Positions 3,066 through 37,723 of a stretch of 64,000 bases of DNA are shown piece by piece. The stretch comes from Candidatus Kaiserbacteria bacterium. Lineage in GTDB: Bacteria > Patescibacteriota > Minisyncoccia > Phycocordibacterales > UBA2100. The translations under genes and the position numbers were made by a program. A model generated the notes under the pieces. It worked only from the letters and a program-made list of their open reading frames with translations, ran no database searches and was not told the DNA's origin. The stretch spans positions 64,852 through 128,851 of the forward strand of contig JACPLC010000005.1 of NCBI GenBank assembly GCA_016186695.1. The letters run 5' to 3'. Positions within the stretch are counted from its first letter, which is position 1. Each line of letters opens with the position of its first letter.

Positions 3066-5666
3066 ATGATGCTGAACCGCGAGTCGCTAGCCAGCCCGTT
3101 TTGGACAAATTCCGCAGAGACAGTTGCAGGTGCGCTTGAAACAGATATCCACCGCGGCATCTCCGAGAGAGAGGCCGAACTGCGACGCGAACTCTTCGGG
3201 AAAAATTCCATTGAGCAGGTGCGCGGCACTTCGGGCTTCGGAATCTTTTTCAGACAATTCGAGAGTCCCCTCATCCTTATCCTTCTTGCCGCCGCGGCAA
3301 CCACACTCTCAATCTCGCACACGCGCGACGCGCTCTTTATTCTGATTGCAGTTTTTGCCAACGTCATTTTAGGCTTCTACCAGGAACACAAGGCCGAGCG
3401 TGCACTTTCGGAGCTGAAAAGCTACCTGCGCGAGCGTGCGCGGGTGATACGCGCCGGCGCGGAGCGCGAGATCGATGCGGAACATCTCGTCCCCGGTGAC
3501 ATCATCCGTCTCTCGCAGGGCGACCGTGTGCCCGCAGACGCGCGGATTGTATTTGTAAACGACCTGCAAATCGACGAAACAGTGCTCACCGGAGAATCAC
3601 TTCCCGTGGAAAAAAATATCGAGGCAGTGCCGGAGAGCGCGGAACTTGCCGATCAGCGCTGCATGGGCTTCGCGGGAACACTGGTCACACAGGGCGTCGG
3701 CACGGCAGTGGTCTGCCGTACCGGAAGCTCGACGGAGTTTGGAAAAATCGCGACGCTTGTCGCGAGAGCAGAGCATGAGGCGACACCTTTGCAGGCCGCA
3801 ATCCAAAAATTCAGCGTCCGTGCAAGCCTCATCTTGGGAGCGCTTACGCTCGTCGTCTTCGCCCTTGGTGTTGCCGCAGGACATTCGTACATCGATATGT
3901 TCCTCACCTCGGTTGCAATCGCAGTTGCGGCAATCCCCGAAGGCTTACCCGTCGCGCTCACGGTAATCCTCGCGGTCGGCGTTGAGCGGATGGCGAAGAG
4001 AAACGGCGTTGTCCGCAAGCTCGTCGCCGCCGAGGCGCTTGGCGACGTAACCGTCATCCTCACGGACAAAACCGGCACGCTGACGATGGCAAAGATGGAG
4101 CTCTCCGACATCATCCCCACGGATGGCGCGGATGAGAGTGCGCTCATACAGCGCGCGGTTTTGAATGCAAACGTTCTTATCGAGAACAGAAACGATCCCC
4201 CAAGCGAGTGGCGCATGAGCGGGCCCATTATGGAAGTCGCGCTCGTTCGCGCCGCCGCGCTGCGCGGATTGGATGTGGCGCACGTGAAAGGAAGCGCACA
4301 GATCGACCAAACGCTTCCTTTCAACGCGGTCAGCAAATTTTCAGTCTCACTTCTTGGCGAGGGCGAGCGGCACCGGCTCATCTTTTTCGGCGCGCCCGAC
4401 ATTCTCGTTTCGCGCTCAACATTCGATGAGGCAAAGCGGCGTGAAATGCTTGCAACGATCGATACACTTGCGCGGGCGGGTAAACGCGTACTCGGTGTCG
4501 CGACGAAGGTGACACACCGAAAGAAAGATCTTTCTCTTGCACACGAGCTTGATGCGGAGAACCTTGAGTTCGAAGGTCTCATTGCATTTCGCGATCCGGT
4601 CCGCGAAAGCGTTCGCGACGCAATACAGCGCGTCGAACGCGCGGGTATCAAGACCATTATCGTCACGGGAGATCACCTCGGCACCGCCGAAACGATCGCG
4701 CGGGAAGTTGGCTTGCCTGTTGACAAAGACTCATCCATCGAAGGAGCGGAGCTCACCTCACTTTCGGAGGCCGAGTTCGCGCAGAGGCTTCCGAAACTCC
4801 GTGTCATCGCGCGGGTCTCCCCGCTCGACAAGGTACGCATCGTGCGAGCGTTGCGAAAAGCGGGTGAGATCGTCGCGATGACGGGCGATGGCGTGAACGA
4901 TGCACCAAGTATCAAAGAGGCCGACGTCGGAGTCGCCATGGGCTCGGGAACCGAGGTGGCACGCTCTGTCGCCGACCTCGTACTTTTGGACGACAACTTT
5001 GAGACGATTGCCGCCGCAGTAGATGAAGGGCGGCAGATTATGAGCAATATCCGCAAAGTTGTCGTGTACCTTCTCTCGACCGTGATGGACGAGCTCACGC
5101 TTATCGGCGGCGCCCTGATTGCAGGCGTTGCACTCCCCTTAAACGCACTCCAGATTCTGTGGGTCAATTTTTTCTCGGACAGTTTCCCCGCTGTTGCGTT
5201 CGCATTTGAAAAAGGGATCGATGGTCTCTCCGTCCGTGCACGCCCCTCTAAGCGGCAGCTTTTTGATCCTCTGATGCGGTTCCTCGTCCTCGTAGTCGGC
5301 CTCTCCTCAAGCGCGCTTCTTCTCGCACTCTACCTCTCACTCCTCTATGCAGGCTATGAAGAGGAGCTCGTGCGGACATTTATCTTCGCCTGCTTCGGCA
5401 GCTACACGCTCTTCGTCGCGTTCTCGGTGAAAAGTCTCGAGAAAAGCATCTTTTCCTACTCACCCTTTTCAAACCTCTATCTCGTGGGGGGAATCGGCAT
5501 CGGCATCGTGCTCATGCTCGCGGCACTATACGTACCCTTCCTGCAGTCTCTTTTTGGCACCGTCGCTCTGCCGCCGCTGTGGCTCTTGGCGGTTCTTGCC
5601 GTCGGCGCTCTGAACATACTCGCCATCGAGGCCGGAAAATGGCTCTTCCGCAGCCGATTGCTATGA
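3066..5666 (+). CDS. Cation-transporting P-type ATPase, P2 (Ca2+/SERCA-PMCA-like) subfamily.
   Basis: Motifs present: DKTGTLT phosphorylation motif, PEGLP, TGDGVNDAPSIKEADVGVAMG, and about 10 TM. I placed the start at the ATGATG at 3066. The track's N-terminal extension from 2838 looks non-coding. Confidence 0.9.
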   Translation: MMLNRESLASPFWTNSAETVAGALETDIHRGISEREAELRRELFGKNSIEQVRGTSGFGIFFRQFESPLILILLAAAATTLSISHTRDALFILIAVFANVILGFYQEHKAERALSELKSYLRERARVIRAGAEREIDAEHLVPGDIIRLSQGDRVPADARIVFVNDLQIDETVLTGESLPVEKNIEAVPESAELADQRCMGFAGTLVTQGVGTAVVCRTGSSTEFGKIATLVARAEHEATPLQAAIQKFSVRASLILGALTLVVFALGVAAGHSYIDMFLTSVAIAVAAIPEGLPVALTVILAVGVERMAKRNGVVRKLVAAEALGDVTVILTDKTGTLTMAKMELSDIIPTDGADESALIQRAVLNANVLIENRNDPPSEWRMSGPIMEVALVRAAALRGLDVAHVKGSAQIDQTLPFNAVSKFSVSLLGEGERHRLIFFGAPDILVSRSTFDEAKRREMLATIDTLARAGKRVLGVATKVTHRKKDLSLAHELDAENLEFEGLIAFRDPVRESVRDAIQRVERAGIKTIIVTGDHLGTAETIAREVGLPVDKDSSIEGAELTSLSEAEFAQRLPKLRVIARVSPLDKVRIVRALRKAGEIVAMTGDGVNDAPSIKEADVGVAMGSGTEVARSVADLVLLDDNFETIAAAVDEGRQIMSNIRKVVVYLLSTVMDELTLIGGALIAGVALPLNALQILWVNFFSDSFPAVAFAFEKGIDGLSVRARPSKRQLFDPLMRFLVLVVGLSSSALLLALYLSLLYAGYEEELVRTFIFACFGSYTLFVAFSVKSLEKSIFSYSPFSNLYLVGGIGIGIVLMLAALYVPFLQSLFGTVALPPLWLLAVLAVGALNILAIEAGKWLFRSRLL

Positions 5667-27299: not shown

Positions 27300-28100
27300 C
27301 TAGGTGAAATAACGCACTGCATTTCTAAATAGCTGAAGACCGGGACTCTCTTTTGGCATTGGCCTGTCATCGCGGACATATTCTTCTCGCAAAAGCGTCC
27401 AGTGCGGAAGCTGGGTGAAGCGCACGGCGCGCTCGGGATGCGGCATGAGCCCGAGCACTCTGCCACCGTAGCCGGTGATGCCTGCGATACCCTCGAGCGA
27501 GCCATTGGGGTTTGCCGGCATGTCGAAGTGCTTCGCCGTTTCTCCTTCCACATACTTCAGTGCAACCGCACCATCTTTCTTTAACTGTGCAAGCGTCTCT
27601 GGCTGCGCGAAATATTTTCCCTCACCATGTGCGATTGGGACGGAAAGCATTTTGATGCCCTTCAGCCATGGGCTGTCATTCTGCACTTCGAGATCCACCC
27701 AGCGGGCGTTGTAGCGCGCGATGCCTGCCCGTACTCCGTCTTGCGGAGGCGGGTCGTTTGCGACGAGAGCGCCGGGCAGGAATCCTGCGCTCGTGAGTAT
27801 CTGGAACCCGTTGCAAATGCCGGCCATCAAGGTGTCCCGCGCGAGAAACTTTTCGATTTCCTTGCCCAAATGATGCCTCACCTTATTGCCGTACGCCTTC
27901 CCCGCACCGGTGTGATCGCCGTACGCAAAGCCGCCGCCGAAGACAATGATTTGTGCTTTTTTCAAAATCGAGGGCTTTGCGATGACGTCGTTGAGATGCA
28001 CGATGTCCGCCGTCGCTCCGACCTGCTCGAACGCGGCTTTCGTTTCATCCTCTGTGTTGAGGCCGTATCCCGAGAAAATGATGACATGCGGTTTTACCAT
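27300..28100 (-). CDS. purQ: Phosphoribosylformylglycinamidine synthase, glutaminase subunit (PurQ).
   Basis: Class I GATase: VIIFSGYGLNTE...GGFAYGDH. Confidence 0.85.
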   Translation of the reverse strand: MVKPHVIIFSGYGLNTEDETKAAFEQVGATADIVHLNDVIAKPSILKKAQIIVFGGGFAYGDHTGAGKAYGNKVRHHLGKEIEKFLARDTLMAGICNGFQILTSAGFLPGALVANDPPPQDGVRAGIARYNARWVDLEVQNDSPWLKGIKMLSVPIAHGEGKYFAQPETLAQLKKDGAVALKYVEGETAKHFDMPANPNGSLEGIAGITGYGGRVLGLMPHPERAVRFTQLPHWTLLREEYVRDDRPMPKESPGLQLFRNAVRYFT

Positions 28101-31100
28101 AATTTGAAAAACGAGCGGTAGTTCTCAGTAAGAGCTGGAAGTGGAATCTCGACTTTTTCCTTCGGAAGTTCGATTGAAACTGACCATGCTTGCACGACTT
28201 CCCCTATCAGTGTCAAGGTGACACCTTGACATGCCTTCTCAAATTCATTTTGTGCACTGCGGCGCACCGAGAGAAGAATACGGCCCTGACTTTCTGAAAA
28301 GAGAATCGAGTCGGCGCGGCGGGCTTTGCCAGGAATGTTTGTGAGGTCGACATCAGCTCCGAGCTGTCCTGCGATCGAAGACTTTGCGAGCGCAACGGCA
28401 AGCCCGCCGCGGCCAACACCGAGCGCGGAAGCAATGAGACCTTTCTGAATCGCGTGAGAAACCGCATCGTATGCTTTCGCGTTCTTTTTCGCATCAACGA
28501 CCGGCACTTGTGGCAAGGTAAGACCTTGCCATTTCGCGTACTCGGAGCATCCCAACTCGTCGTTCGTTTCGCCGATGAGATAGACAAGATCCCCCACTCG
28601 TTTGAAATCGATGGTCATCGCTTTCGCGACATCGGGAATGACACCAATTGCCGAGATTAGGATCGTCGGAAGTGCGGCAATGTGTACTGGCTTTCCTTTC
28701 GCATCAAAGCCGCGGAAGTCGTTGAACATCGAGTCTTTGCCAGAGATAAAAGGTGTGCCGTATGCGGTTGCTACGTCATAACAGGCTTTCGCCGCCTGTT
28801 TCAATTCATACAAGCGCTCCGGCTTCTCGGAGGAAGACCAGCAGAAATTGTCGAGAATCGCGAGATAATCGCGCGAGGCGCCCGCGCAAATTGCATTGCG
28901 CACCGCGGTATCAATCGCCGCTGATGCCATCGCGTAGGTATCAATCTCGGAGTACCACGGCGCATAGCCTTGCGCGAGAACAATTCCACGCTCCGAATCA
29001 AAAAGTGGTTTAATCACAGCTGCATCGGCATTCACGCGCCCCTTCCCTTGCAGGGGCTTTGTCGCCGAATTTCCCTGCACCTCGTGGTCGTACTGCTGGG
29101 AAATAAATGAAATACTTCCGATGCTCGGACGTGAAAGTACATCGAGTATCGCTTTTTTCAGATCCATATTCTTTTTCTCCTCTTTATTCTTCCTTCCTAC
29201 TTCTTTCTTCTTACTTCTCTGAATTTGTACCGGACGTCCTTCATGTAGAAAATCCAGCGTCAGGTCCATCACTGTTTTCTTTACCCCGAGCGAGGTCGAG
29301 GGGCCGCCATAACGCACTACGACACGATCAGTATTTGTAAATTCCCCTATTCGCGTAGCTTCCACGTCGTGCCTGTCCATAATCTTTTTGAACGCCGCCC
29401 ACTTGCGCTTAGGCACAGCAAGCGTCATCCGCTCCTGCGATTCCGAAAGCCAAATCTGCCACGGTGAAAGTCCTGCGTATTTGAGCGGCACTTTTTCGAG
29501 ATCGACGATGCAGCCGCCGCTCTCGCGCGACATTTCCCCTACGGCTCCAGAAAGACCGCCTGCGCCGTTGTCGGTGATGGAGCTGTAAAGTCCGGCATCA
29601 CGCGCCTCGCGAATGAGCGCATCGGAGAGTTTCTTCTGCGTAATCGGATCGCCTATCTGCACGGCTGTCGCCGGAGAACCTTTTGAGAGCGCTTCCGATG
29701 AGAATGTCGCTCCGTGAATGCCGTCGAGTCCCACGCGCCCGCCTATCATCACGATGTAATCCCCCGCTTTCGCTCGTTTAAGGTCCGACCTTTGGGCGCT
29801 CTTAAGGTCGGACCTTGGTATGCGGCGGGGAATAAGACCGACCGTGCCGCCAAATACGAGCGGTTTGCCGCGATAGCTTGGATCGACAGCCACAAATCCC
29901 AGCGGCGTCGGTATCCCGCTCTGATTTCCTCCTTCGTTAATGCCCTGCACAACGCCTTCAAGAATGCGGCGCGCGGGCAAAAGCGGTTGGTTCTTTTCGC
30001 GATCGCGATAAAGCTCGCGCGCATCGTGCGGATCAGCGACGCAGAAACCGTATGTATTCGCAATGGGTTTCGCTCCCAAACCAAAACCAAGCGCATCACG
30101 GTTCACGCCGACGATAGCCGTGACCGAACCGCCAAAGGGATCGAGTGCCGAGGGTGCGTTGTGCGTTTCGACCTTGTGCGTAATGAGATACTTGTTGTCG
30201 AACGCGATCGCGCCCGAGTTGTCTTTAAACACGGAGACACAAAAATCTCCGACTTTTGTTTTATTCTTTCTTCTTTCTTCTTTCTTCTTCCTTCTGATCT
30301 CCTCTGTCGCACCTTTTATGTAGCGGTGGTAAATCCCCTCTTTCACTTCATCCAAAGGGTCGGCGAAAATCGTATGTTTGCAGTGCTCCGACCACGTTTG
30401 AGCCAGCGCTTCGAGCTCGACGTCGGTCGGGTTGCGCTTCTGCGTTCGAAAATGAGCGCGAATAACTTTCATTGCCCCGAGAGAAAGTGCGAGGGGCCCG
30501 CGCCTGCCCGCCGAAGCCTTGGCGGAGGCGGGACCGAGAATTCCCTCTCTGCTTATCTTCATCAATTCCGCGTCACTCACTTCCAAATTCACTGTGTCAG
30601 CCCTCGACGACTCGTGGAGCTTCACCTTCGGCACGACGACCGGAAATTTCCGGCCCGCCTCTGAAATGCTTGCACGCTCGACGAGCGGATTGTGCAGCTC
30701 GCGCACGAATTGTTCTACTTCGCTCTTTGATACATCGCCGGTGAAAAAAATAAAGCGGGATGAATAGACCGCCTCGCCGTCCCGAAACTTCCTTCCAATC
30801 GTATCTTCGATCGTTTCCTGCACCGTCGTCCCGAGATTGTCTGTCACTCCCGGCAGGTAGCCGATCTCTATCGCGTACGTGTAGTTTTTAGGCGCAAGAA
30901 CACTGTCCGTCGAAAATCTCTCTGTGATGGGGTTCGTAAGGCGCTCCGCTGCCCTCTGCAGTTCGCCCTGATCCAGTTTCGCGTCAACGGTATACGCGGC
31001 AGTCGTCGCGACAGCCGAAAGCCGGGTCTCGGGAAAGAGGCTTTTGAGCGTACGGAGGAGTTTCTGGGCGCGCGCGTCCTCTACCTTTGAGGAAATCGCG

Positions 31101-31132
31101 ATACGAGCCGTCATACCCCACCATACTAGCAT
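28094..31132 (-). CDS. purL: Phosphoribosylformylglycinamidine synthase PurL with a fused PurS-like N-terminal domain (1012 aa) and Lys/Glu-rich in-frame insertions.
   Basis: PurM-like AIRS domains throughout (HNAPSALDPFGGSVT, GRVGLDGIHGATFSS). The N-terminal 200 aa contain PurS-like EIGYLPGVTDNLGTTVQETIED. Confidence 0.9.
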   Translation of the reverse strand: MLVWWGMTARIAISSKVEDARAQKLLRTLKSLFPETRLSAVATTAAYTVDAKLDQGELQRAAERLTNPITERFSTDSVLAPKNYTYAIEIGYLPGVTDNLGTTVQETIEDTIGRKFRDGEAVYSSRFIFFTGDVSKSEVEQFVRELHNPLVERASISEAGRKFPVVVPKVKLHESSRADTVNLEVSDAELMKISREGILGPASAKASAGRRGPLALSLGAMKVIRAHFRTQKRNPTDVELEALAQTWSEHCKHTIFADPLDEVKEGIYHRYIKGATEEIRRKKKEERRKNKTKVGDFCVSVFKDNSGAIAFDNKYLITHKVETHNAPSALDPFGGSVTAIVGVNRDALGFGLGAKPIANTYGFCVADPHDARELYRDREKNQPLLPARRILEGVVQGINEGGNQSGIPTPLGFVAVDPSYRGKPLVFGGTVGLIPRRIPRSDLKSAQRSDLKRAKAGDYIVMIGGRVGLDGIHGATFSSEALSKGSPATAVQIGDPITQKKLSDALIREARDAGLYSSITDNGAGGLSGAVGEMSRESGGCIVDLEKVPLKYAGLSPWQIWLSESQERMTLAVPKRKWAAFKKIMDRHDVEATRIGEFTNTDRVVVRYGGPSTSLGVKKTVMDLTLDFLHEGRPVQIQRSKKKEVGRKNKEEKKNMDLKKAILDVLSRPSIGSISFISQQYDHEVQGNSATKPLQGKGRVNADAAVIKPLFDSERGIVLAQGYAPWYSEIDTYAMASAAIDTAVRNAICAGASRDYLAILDNFCWSSSEKPERLYELKQAAKACYDVATAYGTPFISGKDSMFNDFRGFDAKGKPVHIAALPTILISAIGVIPDVAKAMTIDFKRVGDLVYLIGETNDELGCSEYAKWQGLTLPQVPVVDAKKNAKAYDAVSHAIQKGLIASALGVGRGGLAVALAKSSIAGQLGADVDLTNIPGKARRADSILFSESQGRILLSVRRSAQNEFEKACQGVTLTLIGEVVQAWSVSIELPKEKVEIPLPALTENYRSFFKLW

Positions 31133-32169: not shown

Positions 32170-32324
32170 CGCCACAAATTGACAACCCCTGCCAATCGTG
32201 GTTGTCTATACGCTAGTGCCGTTCACCTATCTTTCGGCTCTTAAAAGTGGGACTCAAACTGCAGGCAACACCTGCAGAATCGCAACCGCTCTGGCAGCAG
32301 GGCACATTCAAGGGAAGAAACCCA

Positions 32325-33554
32325 ATGAACCTCGCGAGTAACTCAAACGCGCGTGCCGCCGCTCCACTGTCGATTGTCTGGGGTGCTCGCACCCCGGCGG
32401 AACGTGGACCAATCATTGCGACGTTGCGCAACCCAGCGCAACGCAACGCTATCGGCATGCATGCCGGTGGCTATTCGATCTATCGCGGTCTCGCGGTCGC
32501 GATGGGCGCCTTGCCAAGCAATCACGTGCCGGATCTTACCAATACGGCACCATCTGACCGGCTTGGCCCCCACCCGCAGTGGATGCGCGAGGATACCATC
32601 GTATCGCTCGATCCATGGGGTCATATGGTAGGCGAGGTGTTCGCTGACCATCTCGCGCGCGACTGTGCCATCTTCCCGACGATCGCAGCCGCGCGTGCGC
32701 ACATTGACGTTCCCGAGATCCGAGCTGCAATCGCAGCAGGCCAGTTCAGGTGCGACGGCGAGATCGTTGCGCCGACGGGTAGCGTTCGCGTGATGAAGGC
32801 AGCGATTGATCCCGTGTGGTACCTACCCGGTATCGCACAGCGACTCGGCCTGACCGAAACAGCGCTCCGTGAAAGTATCTACGAGCAGAGCGGCGGGATG
32901 TACAGCGAATTGGTAGAACGTCCCGACCTCAAGGTCTTTCTTCCGCCCATCGGCGGCACGTCGGTCTATGTGTTTGGGGACCCCGCAAAGCTCAGCGATC
33001 GCACGACACCGCTAGCGTGTCGCGTCCACGACGAGTGCAACGGATCGGACGTCTTTGGATCTGATATCTGCACCTGTCGGCCGTATCTTGCCCACGGGAT
33101 TAAGGTCTGCGTCCAGATGGCACAGATGGGCGGCGTCGGCCTGATCGTCTACAATCGCAAAGAAGGTCGTGCGCTCGGCGAGGTCATCAAACTCCTTGTC
33201 TACAACGCGCGTAAGCGGCAGACCGGCGGCGATACCGCCGACAACTACTTCTTGCGAACGGAGTGCATAGCCGGCGTGCGTGACATGCGCTTGCAGATGC
33301 TCATGCCAGATGTGCTGCATTGGCTGGGTGTCTCGAAGATCCATCAGTTCGTCAGCATGAGCAACGACAAGCGTGACGCGATCCTGAAAAGCGGTATTGA
33401 GATCGGGGAGCAAGTCTGCCTCCCCGACGAACTCGTGCCGAGCGACGCTCAAGTCGAGCTTGCCGCCAAGATCGCGGCTGGCTATTTCACGCCCCCGACT
33501 GTTTCGGCGCGTGATCGACTCGAGATCGTGAAAGGTCGCGACGAGCGAGCGTGA
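32325..33554 (+). CDS. GTP cyclohydrolase II (RibA)-like domain fused to an uncharacterised 250-aa N-terminal domain.
   Basis: The C-terminal domain has the zinc triad and RibA core (LACRVHDECNGSDVFGSDICTCRPY...GGVGLIVYNRKEGRALGEV). The N-domain has no match I can name. Confidence 0.55.
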   Translation: MNLASNSNARAAAPLSIVWGARTPAERGPIIATLRNPAQRNAIGMHAGGYSIYRGLAVAMGALPSNHVPDLTNTAPSDRLGPHPQWMREDTIVSLDPWGHMVGEVFADHLARDCAIFPTIAAARAHIDVPEIRAAIAAGQFRCDGEIVAPTGSVRVMKAAIDPVWYLPGIAQRLGLTETALRESIYEQSGGMYSELVERPDLKVFLPPIGGTSVYVFGDPAKLSDRTTPLACRVHDECNGSDVFGSDICTCRPYLAHGIKVCVQMAQMGGVGLIVYNRKEGRALGEVIKLLVYNARKRQTGGDTADNYFLRTECIAGVRDMRLQMLMPDVLHWLGVSKIHQFVSMSNDKRDAILKSGIEIGEQVCLPDELVPSDAQVELAAKIAAGYFTPPTVSARDRLEIVKGRDERA

Positions 33555-33584
33555 CAGGTTCAATCCTGCACCTCGCAAACAAAA

Positions 33585-33617
33585 GCCCTCGGCGCTGAGC
33601 CGGGGGCACTTTTTTAT
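33585..33617 (+). terminator. Rho-independent terminator.
   Basis: GCCCTCGGC-GCTGA-GCCGGGGGC followed by ACTTTTTTAT. Confidence 0.6.
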
Positions 33618-33626
33618 ACCAAATAT

Positions 33627-33655
33627 TTGACAATCCCACGAATCGTGATTATATT
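33627..33655 (+). promoter_or_regulatory. Sigma70-like promoter. Its spacer contains a near-palindrome (CACGAATCGTG).
   Basis: TTGACA, a 17-nt spacer, then TATATT. SD AAGGGAGGA precedes ATG 33718. Confidence 0.5.
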
Positions 33656-33717
33656 TTTCGAAGTGCGATGCTTGAAACATCGCCGAAAAGAGAGTCACAA
33701 ACAAGGGAGGATGGCCC

Positions 33718-34497
33718 ATGAGGCCCCCATCATATGTCGGGATCACGGGATATGAGGCCGCGGCACAAGTCGCTGCGGTGCGAAATTCTGTGTCTGCCGA
33801 TCGTCTGCTGATGGTCGGCTGTGGCATGCGGGGACACCCGATCCACTGGGCCCCGGACAAGTGGCCCAACCGATGCCCGCATCCAGACCAGCTACCGGCT
33901 ATCTTCGGATCACTGCCTAATGTGCTCAACATATTGCACTTCACTCTTTTGGAGGGATGCGACTTGTATGAACACATGTGCATGGCACACAAGGTTGCCG
34001 GACTGAACTTCCACGGCTTCCAACTCAATACGCCGTGGCCGGATGTTGATTCTCTGGTCCGGTATAAATCCCGGTTCCAGGGTGCAGTCATCACGATACC
34101 GCTTCAACGAGAGGCACTGGACATCGTCGACTGGGATCCCAAGGGGATCGCGCGAAAGCTCAAAGGGTATGAGGATGTCGCCGATTACGCCTTGATCGAC
34201 CCAAGTGCGGGCTACGGCCAAGAACTTGATGTGCGGTTTACGCGTAGTTGCTTCGACGCGATCTTTGCGCTCATGCCGAACGTCGGCCTCGTTGCCGCGG
34301 GCGGCTTGTTTGCCGACAACGTTGAAGAGAAGCTCGAGGATCTCCTCAAGGAGTTTCCTCTTGGTACGGACGCGGAAGGAAAACTCCGCACATCGGACGA
34401 TCACCTCGGCGTAGCGGAGGCAATCCGGTACGTTCAAACTACCGATGCGCTTCTTCGGAAGTATGAAGCAAAACGCAATCCACAACTGCTCAAATGA
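33718..34497 (+). CDS. TrpF-like (phosphoribosylanthranilate-isomerase-fold, ribulose-phosphate-binding barrel) protein.
   Basis: YALIDPSAGYGQELD resembles TrpF FLLDSFSGGTGKTFDW. NVGLVAAGGLFADNVEEKL...LGTDAEGKL resembles TrpF VILAGGLNPENV...GVDVSSGVE. The assignment is tentative. Confidence 0.4.
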   Translation: MRPPSYVGITGYEAAAQVAAVRNSVSADRLLMVGCGMRGHPIHWAPDKWPNRCPHPDQLPAIFGSLPNVLNILHFTLLEGCDLYEHMCMAHKVAGLNFHGFQLNTPWPDVDSLVRYKSRFQGAVITIPLQREALDIVDWDPKGIARKLKGYEDVADYALIDPSAGYGQELDVRFTRSCFDAIFALMPNVGLVAAGGLFADNVEEKLEDLLKEFPLGTDAEGKLRTSDDHLGVAEAIRYVQTTDALLRKYEAKRNPQLLK

Positions 34498-34515
34498 AAT
34501 GACGGAGGAGTACCA

Positions 34516-35103
34516 ATGGCAATCAAGAGCACGATGCAACTGGAAACTTCGTTCGGGGTCTTCCAGACTTCCTACCACGATATCAATGGCAAGATGATCG
34601 TGTCGTTTGCGTGCAACGACGTAATGTCGCAAATACCGCTTGTGCGCATGCACTCCGGCTGCATCTTTGGCGACGTGTTTCATTCGCTGCACTGCGACTG
34701 CGGTCAGCAGAAAGACGCAGCCATGCGAGCGATCAAACGGCATGGCCGCGGGGTCTTCCTGTACTCGCCCTTCCAAGAAGGTCGGGGACACGGCCTCGAG
34801 GTCAAGATCCGCGAGATGGCTATCCAGCGCGAGAAGGGTCTGGACACCATCGAGGCGTTCAGGTCCATCGGACTGGAGCCCGACATCCGAACGTACGAGA
34901 GGGAGGTCGCGGTTCTCAAAGAGCTCGGCGTTCCAAGGGCGATCATCCACTTCAGTGGCAACCCCCACAAAAGGGCGGCGCTGGAGGCGGAGGGCTTCGT
35001 TGTTGAACAGATCGAATGGTGCGAACCGCTCGGTGAGCTCGCGGCGGCGGAGCGCGGCCTGAAGAAATCAAGGCTGAACTACGCCTACCGCGACGAGCAA
35101 TAA
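34516..35103 (+). CDS. ribA: GTP cyclohydrolase II.
   Basis: VRMHSGCIFGDVFHSLHCDCGQQ...GVFLYSPFQEGRGHGLEVKI, a close match to the RibA core. Confidence 0.8.
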   Translation: MAIKSTMQLETSFGVFQTSYHDINGKMIVSFACNDVMSQIPLVRMHSGCIFGDVFHSLHCDCGQQKDAAMRAIKRHGRGVFLYSPFQEGRGHGLEVKIREMAIQREKGLDTIEAFRSIGLEPDIRTYEREVAVLKELGVPRAIIHFSGNPHKRAALEAEGFVVEQIEWCEPLGELAAAERGLKKSRLNYAYRDEQ

Positions 35104-35114
35104 GGAGCGGTTCG

Positions 35115-35699
35115 ATGGTCAGACTTCATCGGATACATCGCTCCCCCATGTTCGCGTCGGCGAGCTTGGACGACATTTGGAAGAGAACGAGGCGTTCACT
35201 TGGGCGCATCGCTCACGACCAGCGGCGGTTCGCCGTTTCTCCGCGGCCCGATAATCCGTTCGACGTCGGCGCCGGGATGGCGTTGCTAACTCCAAAGCGC
35301 GAGCTGATGTGTATCGGCACGAGCAACTACAAGCAGGCGGTCGGACCACGAAAACACAAGTGTCCCGACCACTGTGCGGAGATGTATGGCATCGCCACCG
35401 CACGAAAAATGAAATGCAAGATCATCGGCATGGTGATCGAAGCGCCTCCGCAGCCGGATGACTACAGCGGCTTCTTCAAGCATGAGGTAACCGTGTCCTG
35501 CGTGTTCTGCCGGCATGAGTACCGGTTGGAACTGAAGGATCCGGACAGTCCTCTCATGCCGGAGACATGGTTGCGGTTCAACCATCCGACGAACCGGAAA
35601 AAGTTCTTCGAGAAGCAGGTGGCGGCGTTTCTCGCGCTGTTCCCGAACGACCCGAATGAACTCAACCCAATGCACCTTGCTAACCGGGGCGGCCCATGA
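35115..35699 (+). CDS. Cys-rich hypothetical protein, possibly a zinc-binding protein; in an operon with the TrpF-like gene and ribA.
   Basis: RBS AAGGAG; contains CPDHC...CVFCRHEY. Confidence 0.4.
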   Translation: MVRLHRIHRSPMFASASLDDIWKRTRRSLGRIAHDQRRFAVSPRPDNPFDVGAGMALLTPKRELMCIGTSNYKQAVGPRKHKCPDHCAEMYGIATARKMKCKIIGMVIEAPPQPDDYSGFFKHEVTVSCVFCRHEYRLELKDPDSPLMPETWLRFNHPTNRKKFFEKQVAAFLALFPNDPNELNPMHLANRGGP

Positions 35700-35719: not shown

Positions 35720-36229
35720 TTAATGTTCGCGCACTAGATCTACGTATTTGTATTTGATGCCGTTCCATTCGTGTTCTTCTTCGAAGACTTTTTTGGTGAA
35801 CTCCTTTTCATATGGCGGGAAAAAGGTGTCGGCTTCGCCTTCTGCGTCGATGAGTGTGAGGTAGAGCTTGTCGATTTGCGGAAGCGCTTCTTTGTAAATC
35901 TCCGCTCCCCCGCCGATGTGTATCTCATCGCCCCCCGGCGCATCTTTTGCTTTCTCCAAAGCCTCATCGAGCGAGTGCGCGACGATAACGCCCTCGTACG
36001 TCCAGTTAGGGTCGCGGGTAATGACGATGTTTGTCCTATCCGGCAGGGGCGAGCCGCGGTAGCCCACAATGGATTCAAATGTTTTCCGCCCCATGATGAG
36101 CGGGTGCCCGCGCGTGAGGTCGCGGAAACGCTGAACGTCGGCCGGAATTTTCCAAAGAAGCTTATTATCTTTACCGAGCTCCCTATTGCGCCCTATGGCG
36201 ACGACCGCCGCAACTATTGGTTCCTTCAT
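35720..36229 (-). CDS. folA: Dihydrofolate reductase.
   Basis: IVAAVVAIGRNRELGKDNKLLWKIPADVQRFRDLTRGHPLIMGRKTFESI...LPDRTNIVITR. Confidence 0.8.
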   Translation of the reverse strand: MKEPIVAAVVAIGRNRELGKDNKLLWKIPADVQRFRDLTRGHPLIMGRKTFESIVGYRGSPLPDRTNIVITRDPNWTYEGVIVAHSLDEALEKAKDAPGGDEIHIGGGAEIYKEALPQIDKLYLTLIDAEGEADTFFPPYEKEFTKKVFEEEHEWNGIKYKYVDLVREH

Positions 36230-36258
36230 GCTTCTGATATTACCATTTCTGCTTTCAT

Positions 36259-36283
36259 CACGATGAGGTGTCACCTCATCGTT
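36259..36283. repeat. REP-like palindromic hairpin (left copy), overlapping the RAYT stop codon.
   Basis: CACGATGAGGTG-T-CACCTCATCGT(T); 11-12-bp stem. Confidence 0.7.
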
Positions 36284-36959
36284 AACGCTCGAAACGATCG
36301 GTTCTTACCTCTTCGTAGTAAGATCGCGCATCGGCAAGCATGCGAGAAAGAGGAATCTGATCGGCAATTTCAAAACCCTCTTTCGAGAGAACGGGATGTT
36401 TCGGTTGTTTATTTTCGTAGCTGGCAAGGCTGGAATAAGGATACTGCGCGAGCTTTTCGTGCAGCGACCTCATATTTTTTACAACTCCCTGCTTCCATCC
36501 AGGCTCATACAATTCTGCCGGGTTGAGGTGAATGTATTGGATCACGTGCTGAAAGTACCGGTCAGTCGCAATATGCCGCGACCGAAACGGCCTCAAAAAA
36601 ACGTTGCCTACCCGTTTGTTCCTTGCATTGAAATACATCGCATATGCTGTTCCCACTTTTTTCAGAAACGACGAAATGCCGCCAACTGTGTGTTCTTTCA
36701 GTAGCAAATGGAAATGGTTTGGCATTAAACAAAACGCACCAATCGACACGATTGCTTGTCCGCGTTCTACCAGAAATGATTTTTCCACCCGCGGCTTGTA
36801 TGTATTAAAAAGACCTATCGGCTTGGTCCCATTTGCAAGATAAAGGAGCATTATAAAACGATTCGCATCGTACTCATTCTCGAAAACCTTTCGTTTTTCA
36901 ACGCCTCGATTAAAACAGTGATACCACTCGCCAATTTCAAAAGGTGGACGATTGGCCAT
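36282..36959 (-). mobile_element. IS200/IS605-family Y1 (HUH) transposase of the REP-associated (RAYT) type.
   Basis: HUH motif MPNHFHLLL, a downstream catalytic Tyr region, 225 aa, and flanking identical palindromes. Confidence 0.75.
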
Positions 36960-36973
36960 GTGAGCAAGTATAT

Positions 36974-36998
36974 CACGATGAGGTGTCACCTCATCGTG
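36974..36998. repeat. REP-like palindromic hairpin (right copy), 15 nt upstream of the RAYT start.
   Basis: CACGATGAGGTG-T-CACCTCATCGTG; perfect 12-bp stem. Confidence 0.7.
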
Positions 36999-37033
36999 AG
37001 GGACCGCGAGGAAGCGATTACAATTACCAACAT

Positions 37034-37723
37034 ATGAATCAGTACGAAGTGGAGGTGAAGGCACTGCTTGGGAGCGCGGAGCGCGCCGAAGCAATCCGAA
37101 AAGCGATGAAAAAAGTGGACGCTTCGTGCGCGCTTATCTCAAAAAACAAACAGTTGAATCACTACTTCGAGATCGATAAATTCTTCAAAGATCCCATCCA
37201 CTCCCTTGCCAGCGTGATGCGCGCACATCTTCCCGAGCACGCGATCGAGAAGCTCAAAGATATGGCAGCGCGCGCAAAGCAGTTCTCCTTGCGATCACGA
37301 AACAAGGATGGTGAGGCGCTGCTTGTCGTGAAGGCATCCGTCGACGAAACAACGAGTGAAAACGGTATCGCCCGCATCGAGTTCGAAGAAAAGTTCCCGC
37401 AATCGTTCGACTACCTCGACGAGCTCATTTTGACGAACGGATTCCGCTATCAGGCGAAGTGGTCGCGCGAGCGCGAGGAATATATGTGCCGCGGTGTGAA
37501 CGTCACACTCGACAAGAACGCCGGCTACGGATGGCTCGCAGAATTCGAACGCATCGTCGAAGATGAGGTGAAAGTCGAGGCTGCCCGAAATGAGATCCGC
37601 AGTCTTATGAAAGAACTCGAGGTTGAGGAGCTCGCGCAAGACCGTCTTGAGCGCATGTTCGCTTACTACAACGCCCACTGGCCGGAGTATTACGGCACCG
37701 AGAAAATATTCGTGATAGAGTAA
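37034..37723 (+). CDS. CYTH-domain protein (class IV adenylyl cyclase / triphosphatase-like).
   Basis: N-terminal EVEVK (the ExExK signature), Arg-rich strands RSRNKDGEALLVVK, and acidic EFEEKF. Confidence 0.45.
   Translation: MNQYEVEVKALLGSAERAEAIRKAMKKVDASCALISKNKQLNHYFEIDKFFKDPIHSLASVMRAHLPEHAIEKLKDMAARAKQFSLRSRNKDGEALLVVKASVDETTSENGIARIEFEEKFPQSFDYLDELILTNGFRYQAKWSREREEYMCRGVNVTLDKNAGYGWLAEFERIVEDEVKVEAARNEIRSLMKELEVEELAQDRLERMFAYYNAHWPEYYGTEKIFVIE

Follow-up and report, generated by a model that had tools for sequence, protein, structure and literature searches.

We describe a unit of ~740 bp, consisting of a gene for a Y1 HUH endonuclease with a palindrome at either end, in a 64,000-nucleotide stretch of Candidatus Kaiserbacteria DNA (contig JACPLC010000005.1, positions 64,852 to 128,851; the whole stretch is called the window below, and positions are counted from its first letter). 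We consider it likely that this is a REPtron- or TIRtron-type unit, in which a nuclease resembling the tyrosine transposases (RAYTs) that accompany repetitive extragenic palindromes (REPs) is paired with its cognate palindromes. An earlier note, made from the letters of the window, had described a REPtron-like insertion between folA and a CYTH/dcd/thyA/tmk/glyA row. That description is largely right, and it needs correcting in that the protein is not a canonical RAYT. To it we add the family context, the empty sites, a residue-to-base code, in-frame intragenic copies of the palindromes and the promoter geometry. The locus is built as follows:

36974 to 36998, no strand: gene-upstream palindrome, 12+1+12 with its centre at 36986; perfect stem extending to 13 bp (36973-36999)
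36259 to 36283, no strand: gene-downstream palindrome, perfect stem of 11 bp (36260-36282), outermost pair broken by a G to T change
36282 to 36959, minus strand: Y1 HUH endonuclease gene, 225 aa plus stop, MPNHFHLLL at residues 79-87
35720 to 36229, minus strand: folA (dihydrofolate reductase; Pfam DHFR), directly downstream of the unit and on the same strand
37034 to 37723, plus strand: CYTH-domain gene (Pfam CYTH), head of the divergent CYTH-dcd-thyA-tmk-glyA row

The upstream palindrome is exactly CACGATGAGGTG-T-CACCTCATCGTG by direct reading, by pattern search and by repeat analysis; it abuts the Y1 promoter and leaves 35 nt to the divergent CYTH start. In the downstream copy the last base is T instead of G, and this T is part of the TAA stop codon of the Y1 gene. 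The two copies agree at 24/25 positions, so the earlier note was right about where the palindromes lie and that they bracket the gene, and was off by one base in calling them identical. Its other observations on the locus hold: the 225-aa open reading frame (ORF) carries the HUH motif of Y1 transposases, the left palindrome overlaps the Y1 stop codon about 30 nt from the folA start (29 nt when measured to the ATG at 36229), and Pfam identifies all of the named neighbours, with DCD, thymidylate synthase, thymidylate kinase and SHMT accompanying CYTH. The exactly repeated unit is 26 nt long (36257-36282 equals 36972-36997), none of 100 shuffled windows gave any palindrome match, and as single-stranded DNA each copy forms a hairpin of -10 to -13 kcal/mol, with z from -4.3 to -5.5. 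Because each flank is self-complementary, the two also count as inverted repeats, which the repeat analysis scored as 96% complementary. As single palindromes 715 nt apart they do not form a REPIN, which is an inverted doublet with a short spacer. No second Y1 gene was found in the window, where the copy number is thus 1. At NCBI an identical protein is filed under Candidatus Kaiserbacteria bacterium, and the exact gene is also present in the SRR121134xx sequencing runs.

Relatives of the Y1 protein number at least 1591 in the protein collection and more than 582 in species-representative genomes, the latter all being metagenome-assembled genomes of Paceibacteria/Patescibacteria. Several genomes contain two or three Y1 paralogues that are only ~50% identical to each other. 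For a survey of the flanks we placed the Y1 gene in 83 distinct loci and scanned within 130 nt of the gene for the core RAG(G/A)NN-N-NN(C/T)CTY. The core palindrome was present upstream in 63/83 loci, downstream in 48/83 and on both sides in 41/83, and most other loci exhibit palindromes of the same kind with a 3-5-nt centre or loop; overall, 70-77 of the 83 family loci have flanking palindromes. The upstream copy ends 6-50 nt ahead of the Y1 ATG, and the downstream copy overlaps the Y1 stop codon or follows it closely. Stem positions 7-13, which lie outside the six pairs that define the search, were paired in 90, 79, 81, 71, 56, 53 and 51% of cases compared with 46, 29, 28, 49, 26, 32 and 41% after shuffling. 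Since this outer pairing exceeds that of the shuffles and makes use of all four pair types, the dyad symmetry itself is selected. At the centre stands an A or a T, and either flank can have it in either orientation. In the closest relative, L127, the Y1 is 78% identical and every base of the two palindromes is conserved while the remaining intergenic DNA cannot be aligned, a comparison which indicates selection on the palindrome. Inverted doublets were seen downstream of the Y1 stop in L031, L036, L044, L049, L060, L067 and L085; they belong mainly to the GTAAGGTG class and could form a longer, REPIN-like hairpin.

The palindromes vary in step with the proteins. Arms differ at 1.3/12 positions between the two flanks of one locus as compared with 5.3/12 between loci, protein distance is correlated with arm distance (Mantel r 0.43, with 0/2000 permutations as high), and protein clades match the palindrome classes ATGAGRYG, GTAAGGTG, TCAAGGCG, GCAAGGCG and others. 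This co-variation can be traced to individual residues, given here in window-protein numbering, with independent switches counted by Fitch parsimony on a neighbour-joining tree. At base pair 3, G is matched by Thr104 in 59/59 cases and A by Ile, Leu or Val104 in 10/10, with 8 changes in each character. At base pair 2, C goes with Gln or His100 (27/27) and T with Arg or Lys100 (36/42), with ~10 changes. At base pair 1, G goes with Lys or Arg123 (62/62) and C or T with Gly123 (7/7), with 4 changes, and residue 119 is His when base 1 is C and Ala when it is T. The window protein, which has K100, T104, N119 and R123 together with a GGTG stem, fits this code. In a structural model of the window protein (described below) residues 100 and 104 are one helical turn apart on helix 94-114, while 119 and 123 belong to the loop that leads into strand 126-130. 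Helix alphaC of E. coli TnpAREP enters the groove of the REP hairpin (PMC3479197) and R78, K82 and R97 make base-specific contacts (PMC3479197; PMC8266576). Counted from the second HUH histidine these contacts are at +17, +21 and +36 and the co-varying residues at +16, +20 and +35/+39, so that the latter probably correspond, within one residue, to R78, K82 and R97. Taken together, the way in which residues 100, 104, 119 and 123 track the apical stem bases argues that the family protein reads its palindrome. The code is nearly deterministic and makes predictions: T104I should shift preference from GGTG to GATG, K/R100Q should shift it from GGTG to GGCG, and K/R123G should release the apical G.

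The protein itself matches Pfam Y1_Tnp (PF01797) with 26.2 bits against a cut-off of 23. An AlphaFold2 model built from a 72-sequence alignment reached a pLDDT (predicted local distance difference test) of 91 and a pTM (predicted template modelling score) of 0.88, and its best structural match in the PDB by Foldseek is 4ER8, the E. coli RAYT with its REP hairpin (E 1.4e-6), followed by the TnpA proteins of IS608 and ISDra2; 4ER8, 2VJV and 2XMA head the matches with probability 1.00. Among 72 homologues of 49-78% identity H82, H84, Q137, Y142, H144, N146 and P147 are invariant. The HUH motif is H82-F-H84 on model strand 82-89, and the catalytic motif is Y142-I-H-L-N146-P with Y142 on model helix 133-145; the full inventory comprises NHFH (81-84), YFQ (135-137), YIHLNP (142-147) and a YPYSS tail (173-177). 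With HUH on a strand, a single tyrosine on a helix, the profile score and the fold, the protein belongs to the Y1 HUH superfamily. In E. coli TnpAREP the metal ligands include Y115 and N119, with which the Asn at Y+4 of the window protein agrees (PMC3479197). Pfam detected no helix-turn-helix-like C-terminal domain, and no tnpB was present in any neighbourhood examined around family loci. The invariance of Y142 answers the doubt, raised in the earlier note, that the catalytic tyrosine might be missing. The Y---NP motif, the length of 225 aa, the lack of tnpB in those neighbourhoods and the match to 4ER8 likewise exclude an ordinary IS200/IS605 TnpA. Catalysis and a cleavage site are inferred for the window protein.

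Palindromes of the family also occur apart from Y1 genes. Of the family-core palindromes in 1.22 Mb of loci plus the window, 111 adjoin a Y1 gene and 34 are orphans (~1 per 36 kb), some of them cognate to the local Y1 (L015, L034, L039, L074, L085). The exact 19-nt core of the window was found at 33 metagenome loci, of which five adjoin Y1 and ~28 are far from any Y1, and the palindrome is thus not unique to this locus, as the earlier note had thought it might be. Most of these metagenome orphans have long perfect stems, e.g. AAATCCGATGAGGTGNCACCTCATCGGATTT, in unrelated contexts; 14 contigs carrying the exact core come from one metagenome. Open frames of 150 aa or more contain 18/34 of the orphans, or about half. 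Those from the metagenome loci encode (K)SDEV(S/T)PHR(I) in frame in UvrB, TsaD, PurD, LysS, MiaA, the gamma subunit of ATP synthase and Def. Relative to every solved UvrB the UvrB orphan sits in a 17-residue in-frame insertion, and the PurD orphan occupies a slightly expanded loop. The window contains one orphan of another class, inside purL (FGAM synthase, 28094-31132, minus strand). The intragenic copies are:

Metagenome loci, orphan core copies in genes: L095 827-845, L109 4778-4796, L096 8249-8267, L090 13415-13433, L101/L103, L118 and L099
28211 to 28231 of the window, no strand: TGTCAAGGTG-N-CACCTTGACA, perfect 10+1+10, in frame inside purL

The purL orphan lies in the C-terminal part of the gene, where it encodes CQGVTLT, and its class is cognate to other Y1 paralogues (e.g. 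those of L050 and L072) and not to the window Y1. It aligns without gaps to FEGVALT of a relative in which the DNA is not palindromic, and the coding sequence seems to have been recoded and not lengthened. At 3778-3788 of the window, AGGCGACACCT is an imperfect match to the family core in a coding region, without an extended stem, and is probably due to chance. In the region 113-656 of L019, three family palindromes are located in one 470-aa open frame and encode AMRCHLIA-like peptides.

Comparison of the folA-CYTH junction among relatives, as the earlier note had proposed, revealed sites without the unit. In the clade with ATGAG-type palindromes 14/22 Y1 genes precede folA by 44-162 nt and share its strand, and the upstream neighbours of these folA-linked loci vary between thyA-dcd, dcd-thyA and the divergent CYTH arrangement of the window. 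Other members of the clade are elsewhere: in L011/12/14 between a kinase-like gene and transketolase, and also in L015, L020, L021 and L026. A direct search for folA homologues yielded one occupied site (L122) and three that are empty (L123, L125, L126). In empty L123 (3978-4003) the CYTH and folA starts are 20 nt apart with no palindrome, and within this spacer the -10 boxes of the two divergent genes, which are on opposite strands, overlap. In the empty sites L125 and L126 the gene next to folA is dcd, with an overlap of 4 nt or a gap of 2 nt. These seamless empty sites imply that palindrome, promoter, gene and palindrome are present or absent as one unit exactly 5' of folA, with both palindromes included. 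The insertion reading of the earlier note is borne out to this extent; a recent insertion private to the window genome is not, the unit being common to many Kaiserbacteria. We thus regard the unit as a presence/absence polymorphism that parts folA from the thymidylate (dTMP) genes. In a neighbour-joining tree of FolA (167 aa) the empty sites nest among the occupied ones, a tree that is too weak to settle gain versus loss.

Two candidate signs of mobility at this site were rejected. Incongruence between FolA and Y1 (rho 0.39 for their pairwise identities) does not single out a horizontal replacement, as glyA, thyA, tmk and folA correlate with one another at only -0.06 to 0.44. A 7-nt TGGTAAT outside both window palindromes resembles a target-site duplication; it is absent in L127, and we ascribe it to chance overlap with a -10-like sequence. 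Removing the unit would rebuild a 20-nt spacer as in L123. At the CYTH-folA junction of L124 (3434-4000) there is no Y1, and a 107-aa ORF without a Pfam match is found together with a 13-bp inverted repeat, CCCCGTGAGATAA and TTATCTCACGGGG separated by 35 nt, which contains a GTGAGAT half-site; this junction could be a deletion remnant of the unit.

The empty sites bear on an alternative that we consider unlikely, namely that we are dealing with an IS200-like insertion sequence (IS) that is autonomous, or was so until recently, and in which the whole segment would move by peel-and-paste with the palindromes as left- and right-end hairpins. A compact segment of ~740 bp with a hairpin at each end, the members of the same clade in unrelated contexts (L011/12/14, L015, L020, L021, L026), the seamless empty sites that precise excision predicts, and the presence of the IS608 and ISDra2 TnpA proteins among the fold relatives all agree with such an element. 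However, within a genome we saw no near-identical copies, the paralogues being ~50% identical and the clusters small. IS200 TnpA proteins (subclass 1.1) have Y---Q and ~150 aa (PMC6006769), as opposed to Y---NP and 225 aa here. There is also no conserved target or cleavage motif and no target duplication, solo palindromes exceed the number that an intact IS would leave, and neither the tree nor the identity correlations give a direction of gain or loss at the folA site.

The palindromes stand next to promoters of a particular kind. In the window these are:

36967 to 36975, minus strand: Y1 extended -10, TGATATACT, 7 nt upstream of the ATG, its TG lying inside the outer stem of the upstream palindrome
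36237 to 36245, minus strand: extended -10 of folA, TGGTAATAT, 7 nt before the ATG and 13 nt past the downstream palindrome
37019 to 37024: -10-like TACAAT of the CYTH gene

No canonical sigma-70 promoter with -35 and -10 boxes was found in the region, which has extended -10 elements only; the TTGACA in arms of the TCAAGG class was considered as a -35 and dismissed for its far too short spacing to the -10. Across the family TAnnnT ends 3-12 nt (mode 6-7) before the Y1 start in 76/82 loci, and the extended form TGnTAnnnT occurs in 44/82 loci as opposed to 0.5% of random positions. In this lineage the extended -10 promoter appears to sit 6-7 nt ahead of the ATG, a spacing that implies leaderless mRNAs and is seen in the window at 36230-36245, 36960-36975 and 37019-37033, and the Y1 genes are probably transcribed as such mRNAs from a promoter that starts at the end of the upstream palindrome. 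Beyond the downstream palindrome the same geometry is observed in 10/11 folA-linked loci but in only 2/39 others. Because of this difference we assign the promoter past the downstream palindrome to folA and reject an outward promoter as part of the mobile unit. A putative influence on the Y1 and folA promoters, whether exerted by the palindromes or by protein bound there, is plausible.

This geometry is the starting point of a further alternative, in which the Y1 protein would be a domesticated regulator that binds duplex palindromes, represses its own gene and controls folA and the CYTH-dcd-thyA row, the nuclease being irrelevant. In most loci the upstream palindrome, which covers about -14 to -45, reaches up to or into the extended -10 of Y1, and in 10/11 folA-linked loci the downstream one ends 10-20 nt before the extended -10 of folA. 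The perfect dyad symmetry and the orientation-free centre would suit an operator, and in L019 (10680-13700), where two genes (863 and 133 aa) lie between Y1 and folA, a palindrome of another subtype stays 26 nt ahead of folA. We nevertheless rate this reading as quite improbable: HUH, Tyr and Asn are invariant where a pure repressor would not need them, about half of the orphans are in coding regions and not at promoters, the promoter past the downstream palindrome is typical of folA only, and known Y1 enzymes bind hairpins in single-stranded DNA (PMC3479197). It is hardly credible that the palindromes act at the RNA level, as terminators or as hairpins that stabilise mRNA, and have nothing to do with the protein encoded between them. 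Their position where the upstream gene and Y1 end, with stop codons overlapped, their stable hairpins and the known stabilisation of mRNA by REPs (PMC3733652) speak for it, but no T-tract follows them, a terminator scan was negative, Rfam gave no match, the window upstream copy precedes the predicted starts of both divergent genes and so would not be transcribed, and the residue-by-base co-variation and the identity of flanks within a locus are left unexplained.

As the likely reading we return to a nuclease with cognate palindromes, for which we propose the following mechanism. Expressed from its own extended -10, a class-2 Y1 HUH single-strand endonuclease of the RAYT/TnpAREP kind, with motifs nearest to subclass 2.1, would most likely bind its palindrome as a hairpin in single-stranded DNA, the hairpin being preferred to the duplex by inference. 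Helix alphaC (residues 100 and 104) and the alphaC-beta4 loop (119 and 123) would read the three apical base pairs, and H82/H84, Y142 and N146 would cut and rejoin DNA near the palindrome. Such activity could copy palindromes to other places, including in frame into genes, and keep the two flanks alike. Where present, the unit parts folA from its upstream neighbour, with folA keeping its own promoter ~13 nt past the downstream palindrome. The IS200-like and operator alternatives are not exclusive of this reading.

Several points weigh against it. No GT[AG]G tag, foot motif or cleavage motif was found, foot-aligned flanks having less than 0.1 bit per position, and with full symmetry and an orientation-free centre, duplex binding by a dimer fits as well as a hairpin does. 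The dispersal of the cognate palindrome about which the earlier note had asked is not seen within the window, which has no further copy beyond the two flanks in its 64 kb. The NCBIfam RAYT equivalog REP_Tyr_transpos (NF047646) matches residues 66-148 with E 4.6e-10 and 39.5 bits, below its cut-off of 80, and by sequence no PDB entry matches at E<0.3 even with a 72-sequence profile; in sequence the protein is remote from all solved Y1 enzymes. The tree on which the switches were counted is approximate, and the correspondence of the co-varying residues to R78, K82 and R97 is one of spacing from the HUH motif and not of superposition. As for the RAYT identity claimed at the outset, the fold is indeed nearest to the RAYT-REP complex 4ER8, while the sub-threshold equivalog score, the missing GT[AG]G tag and motifs that are those of subclass 2.1/TIRYT place the protein elsewhere. 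The window system would act like E. coli TnpAREP and its REPs yet is outside that equivalog family.

A more far-reaching idea, which we offer tentatively and regard as rather doubtful, is that these units represent domesticated palindrome maintenance and not decaying transposons. The streamlined genomes of the candidate phyla radiation (CPR) might keep several orthogonal nuclease-palindrome pairs for a benefit to the host, with an apex code that can be re-programmed (104 with base pair 3, 100 with base pair 2, 119 and 123 with base pair 1). Palindromes would have been recruited beside promoters as insulators, e.g. where folA is uncoupled from the thymidylate genes, and within the coding sequence of repair and translation genes as in-frame inserts, and the enzyme would be retained to copy-correct and place them.

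The surroundings of folA show variation of their own. In L001-L027 and L122-L126 the dTMP/folate cluster is a mosaic in which ThyA identities range over 28-91%, which suggests two non-orthologous types of ThyA. There is hardly any correlation between the pairwise identities of glyA, thyA, tmk and folA, and at least three arrangements of gene order and orientation are found upstream of Y1/folA. On the far side of folA in the window (32247-35699, plus strand) four genes, in the same place in L001, encode a GTP_CH_N plus GTP cyclohydrolase II protein (435 aa), a 259-aa ORF, a GTP cyclohydrolase II-like protein (195 aa) and a 194-aa ORF; the 259-aa and 194-aa ORFs have no Pfam match. These genes may be a pterin/folate-related module beside the dTMP/folate genes.

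Among known systems, the IS200/IS605 TnpA proteins of IS608 and ISDra2 resemble the window system in the Y1 fold, the small unit with a hairpin near each end and the seamless empty sites, and differ from it in that the latter has Y---NP and 225 aa, is without tnpB in the neighbourhoods examined and without near-identical copies, and shows no tetranucleotide conserved as target or cleavage site. The Rickettsia palindromic elements (RPEs) are palindromic elements inserted in frame into genes. The orphans in frame in UvrB, TsaD, PurD, LysS, MiaA, AtpG and Def, with their short loop peptides, resemble them; unlike RPEs, the palindromes described here have an identifiable cognate Y1 gene and are much shorter (25-35 nt). 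Intragenic REPs have also been described (PMC3733652), and in the present family palindromes colonise coding regions in frame where intergenic space is scarce.

The REPtron of E. coli combines a RAYT, TnpAREP, with REPs and bacterial interspersed mosaic elements (PMC3333891; PMC3479197, PDB 4ER8; PMC8266576). The window system is like it in fold, HUH motif, Y---N, flanking cognate palindromes that are also found elsewhere in the genome, and co-evolution of enzyme and palindrome. It is unlike it in having no GT[AG]G foot tag, a perfect stem without a bulge, a conserved apex rather than a conserved foot, about one orphan per 36 kb instead of hundreds of REPs per genome, and a protein 60 aa longer. 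How RAYT-type enzymes act in vivo and how they choose their palindromes are questions on which the family bears: three enzyme/REP pairs have so far been dissected by SELEX (systematic evolution of ligands by exponential enrichment; PMC8266576), and the family supplies hundreds of natural enzyme-palindrome pairs in tiny genomes. Among the papers searched, none links RAYT/REP systems to the CPR.

By motifs the closest likeness is to the TIRtrons, whose TIRYT enzymes (Di Nocera et al. 2013, PMC3733652) are equivalent to TnpAY1 subclass 2.1 (Quentin et al. 2018, PMC6006769) and to RAYT group 1 (Bertels et al. 2017, PMC5581495), subclass 2.1 comprising most of the TIRYTs of Di Nocera et al. Its motifs as tabulated (Table 1, PMC6006769) are NH[YF]H, FQ in place of WQ/WE, Y[IV]HLNP and an SS tail in proteins of ~238 aa, and the window protein fits them with NHFH, YFQ, YIHLNP, YPYSS and 225 aa, as judged by inspection of motifs and not by the authors' hidden Markov models or tree. 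Its motifs do not correspond to those of the classical REP-associated subclasses 2.2 and 2.5. The few copies per genome, the divergent paralogues and the location of the gene between inverted repeats are likewise TIRYT-like. Some terminal inverted repeats (TIRs) are wholly self-complementary and form moderately abundant families, e.g. that of S. maltophilia ORF 1152, and many share GGGGWSAS (PMC3733652). The family core GGTGWCAC agrees with this motif at 7/8 positions and its GGCGWCGC variants at 6/8, a likeness without a statistical test that we give only as a lead. According to Quentin et al. (PMC6006769) no REP-like structures accompany subclass 2.1 genes, whereas here we find full and usually perfect palindromes with a conserved apex, AGGYG-W-CRCCT, and a co-varying outer stem, in a host lineage, the CPR, that is absent from the TIRYT and subclass 2.1 surveys. 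The unit described here would thus extend the REPtron arrangement both to the CPR and to a Y1 subclass that had been reported without REPs.

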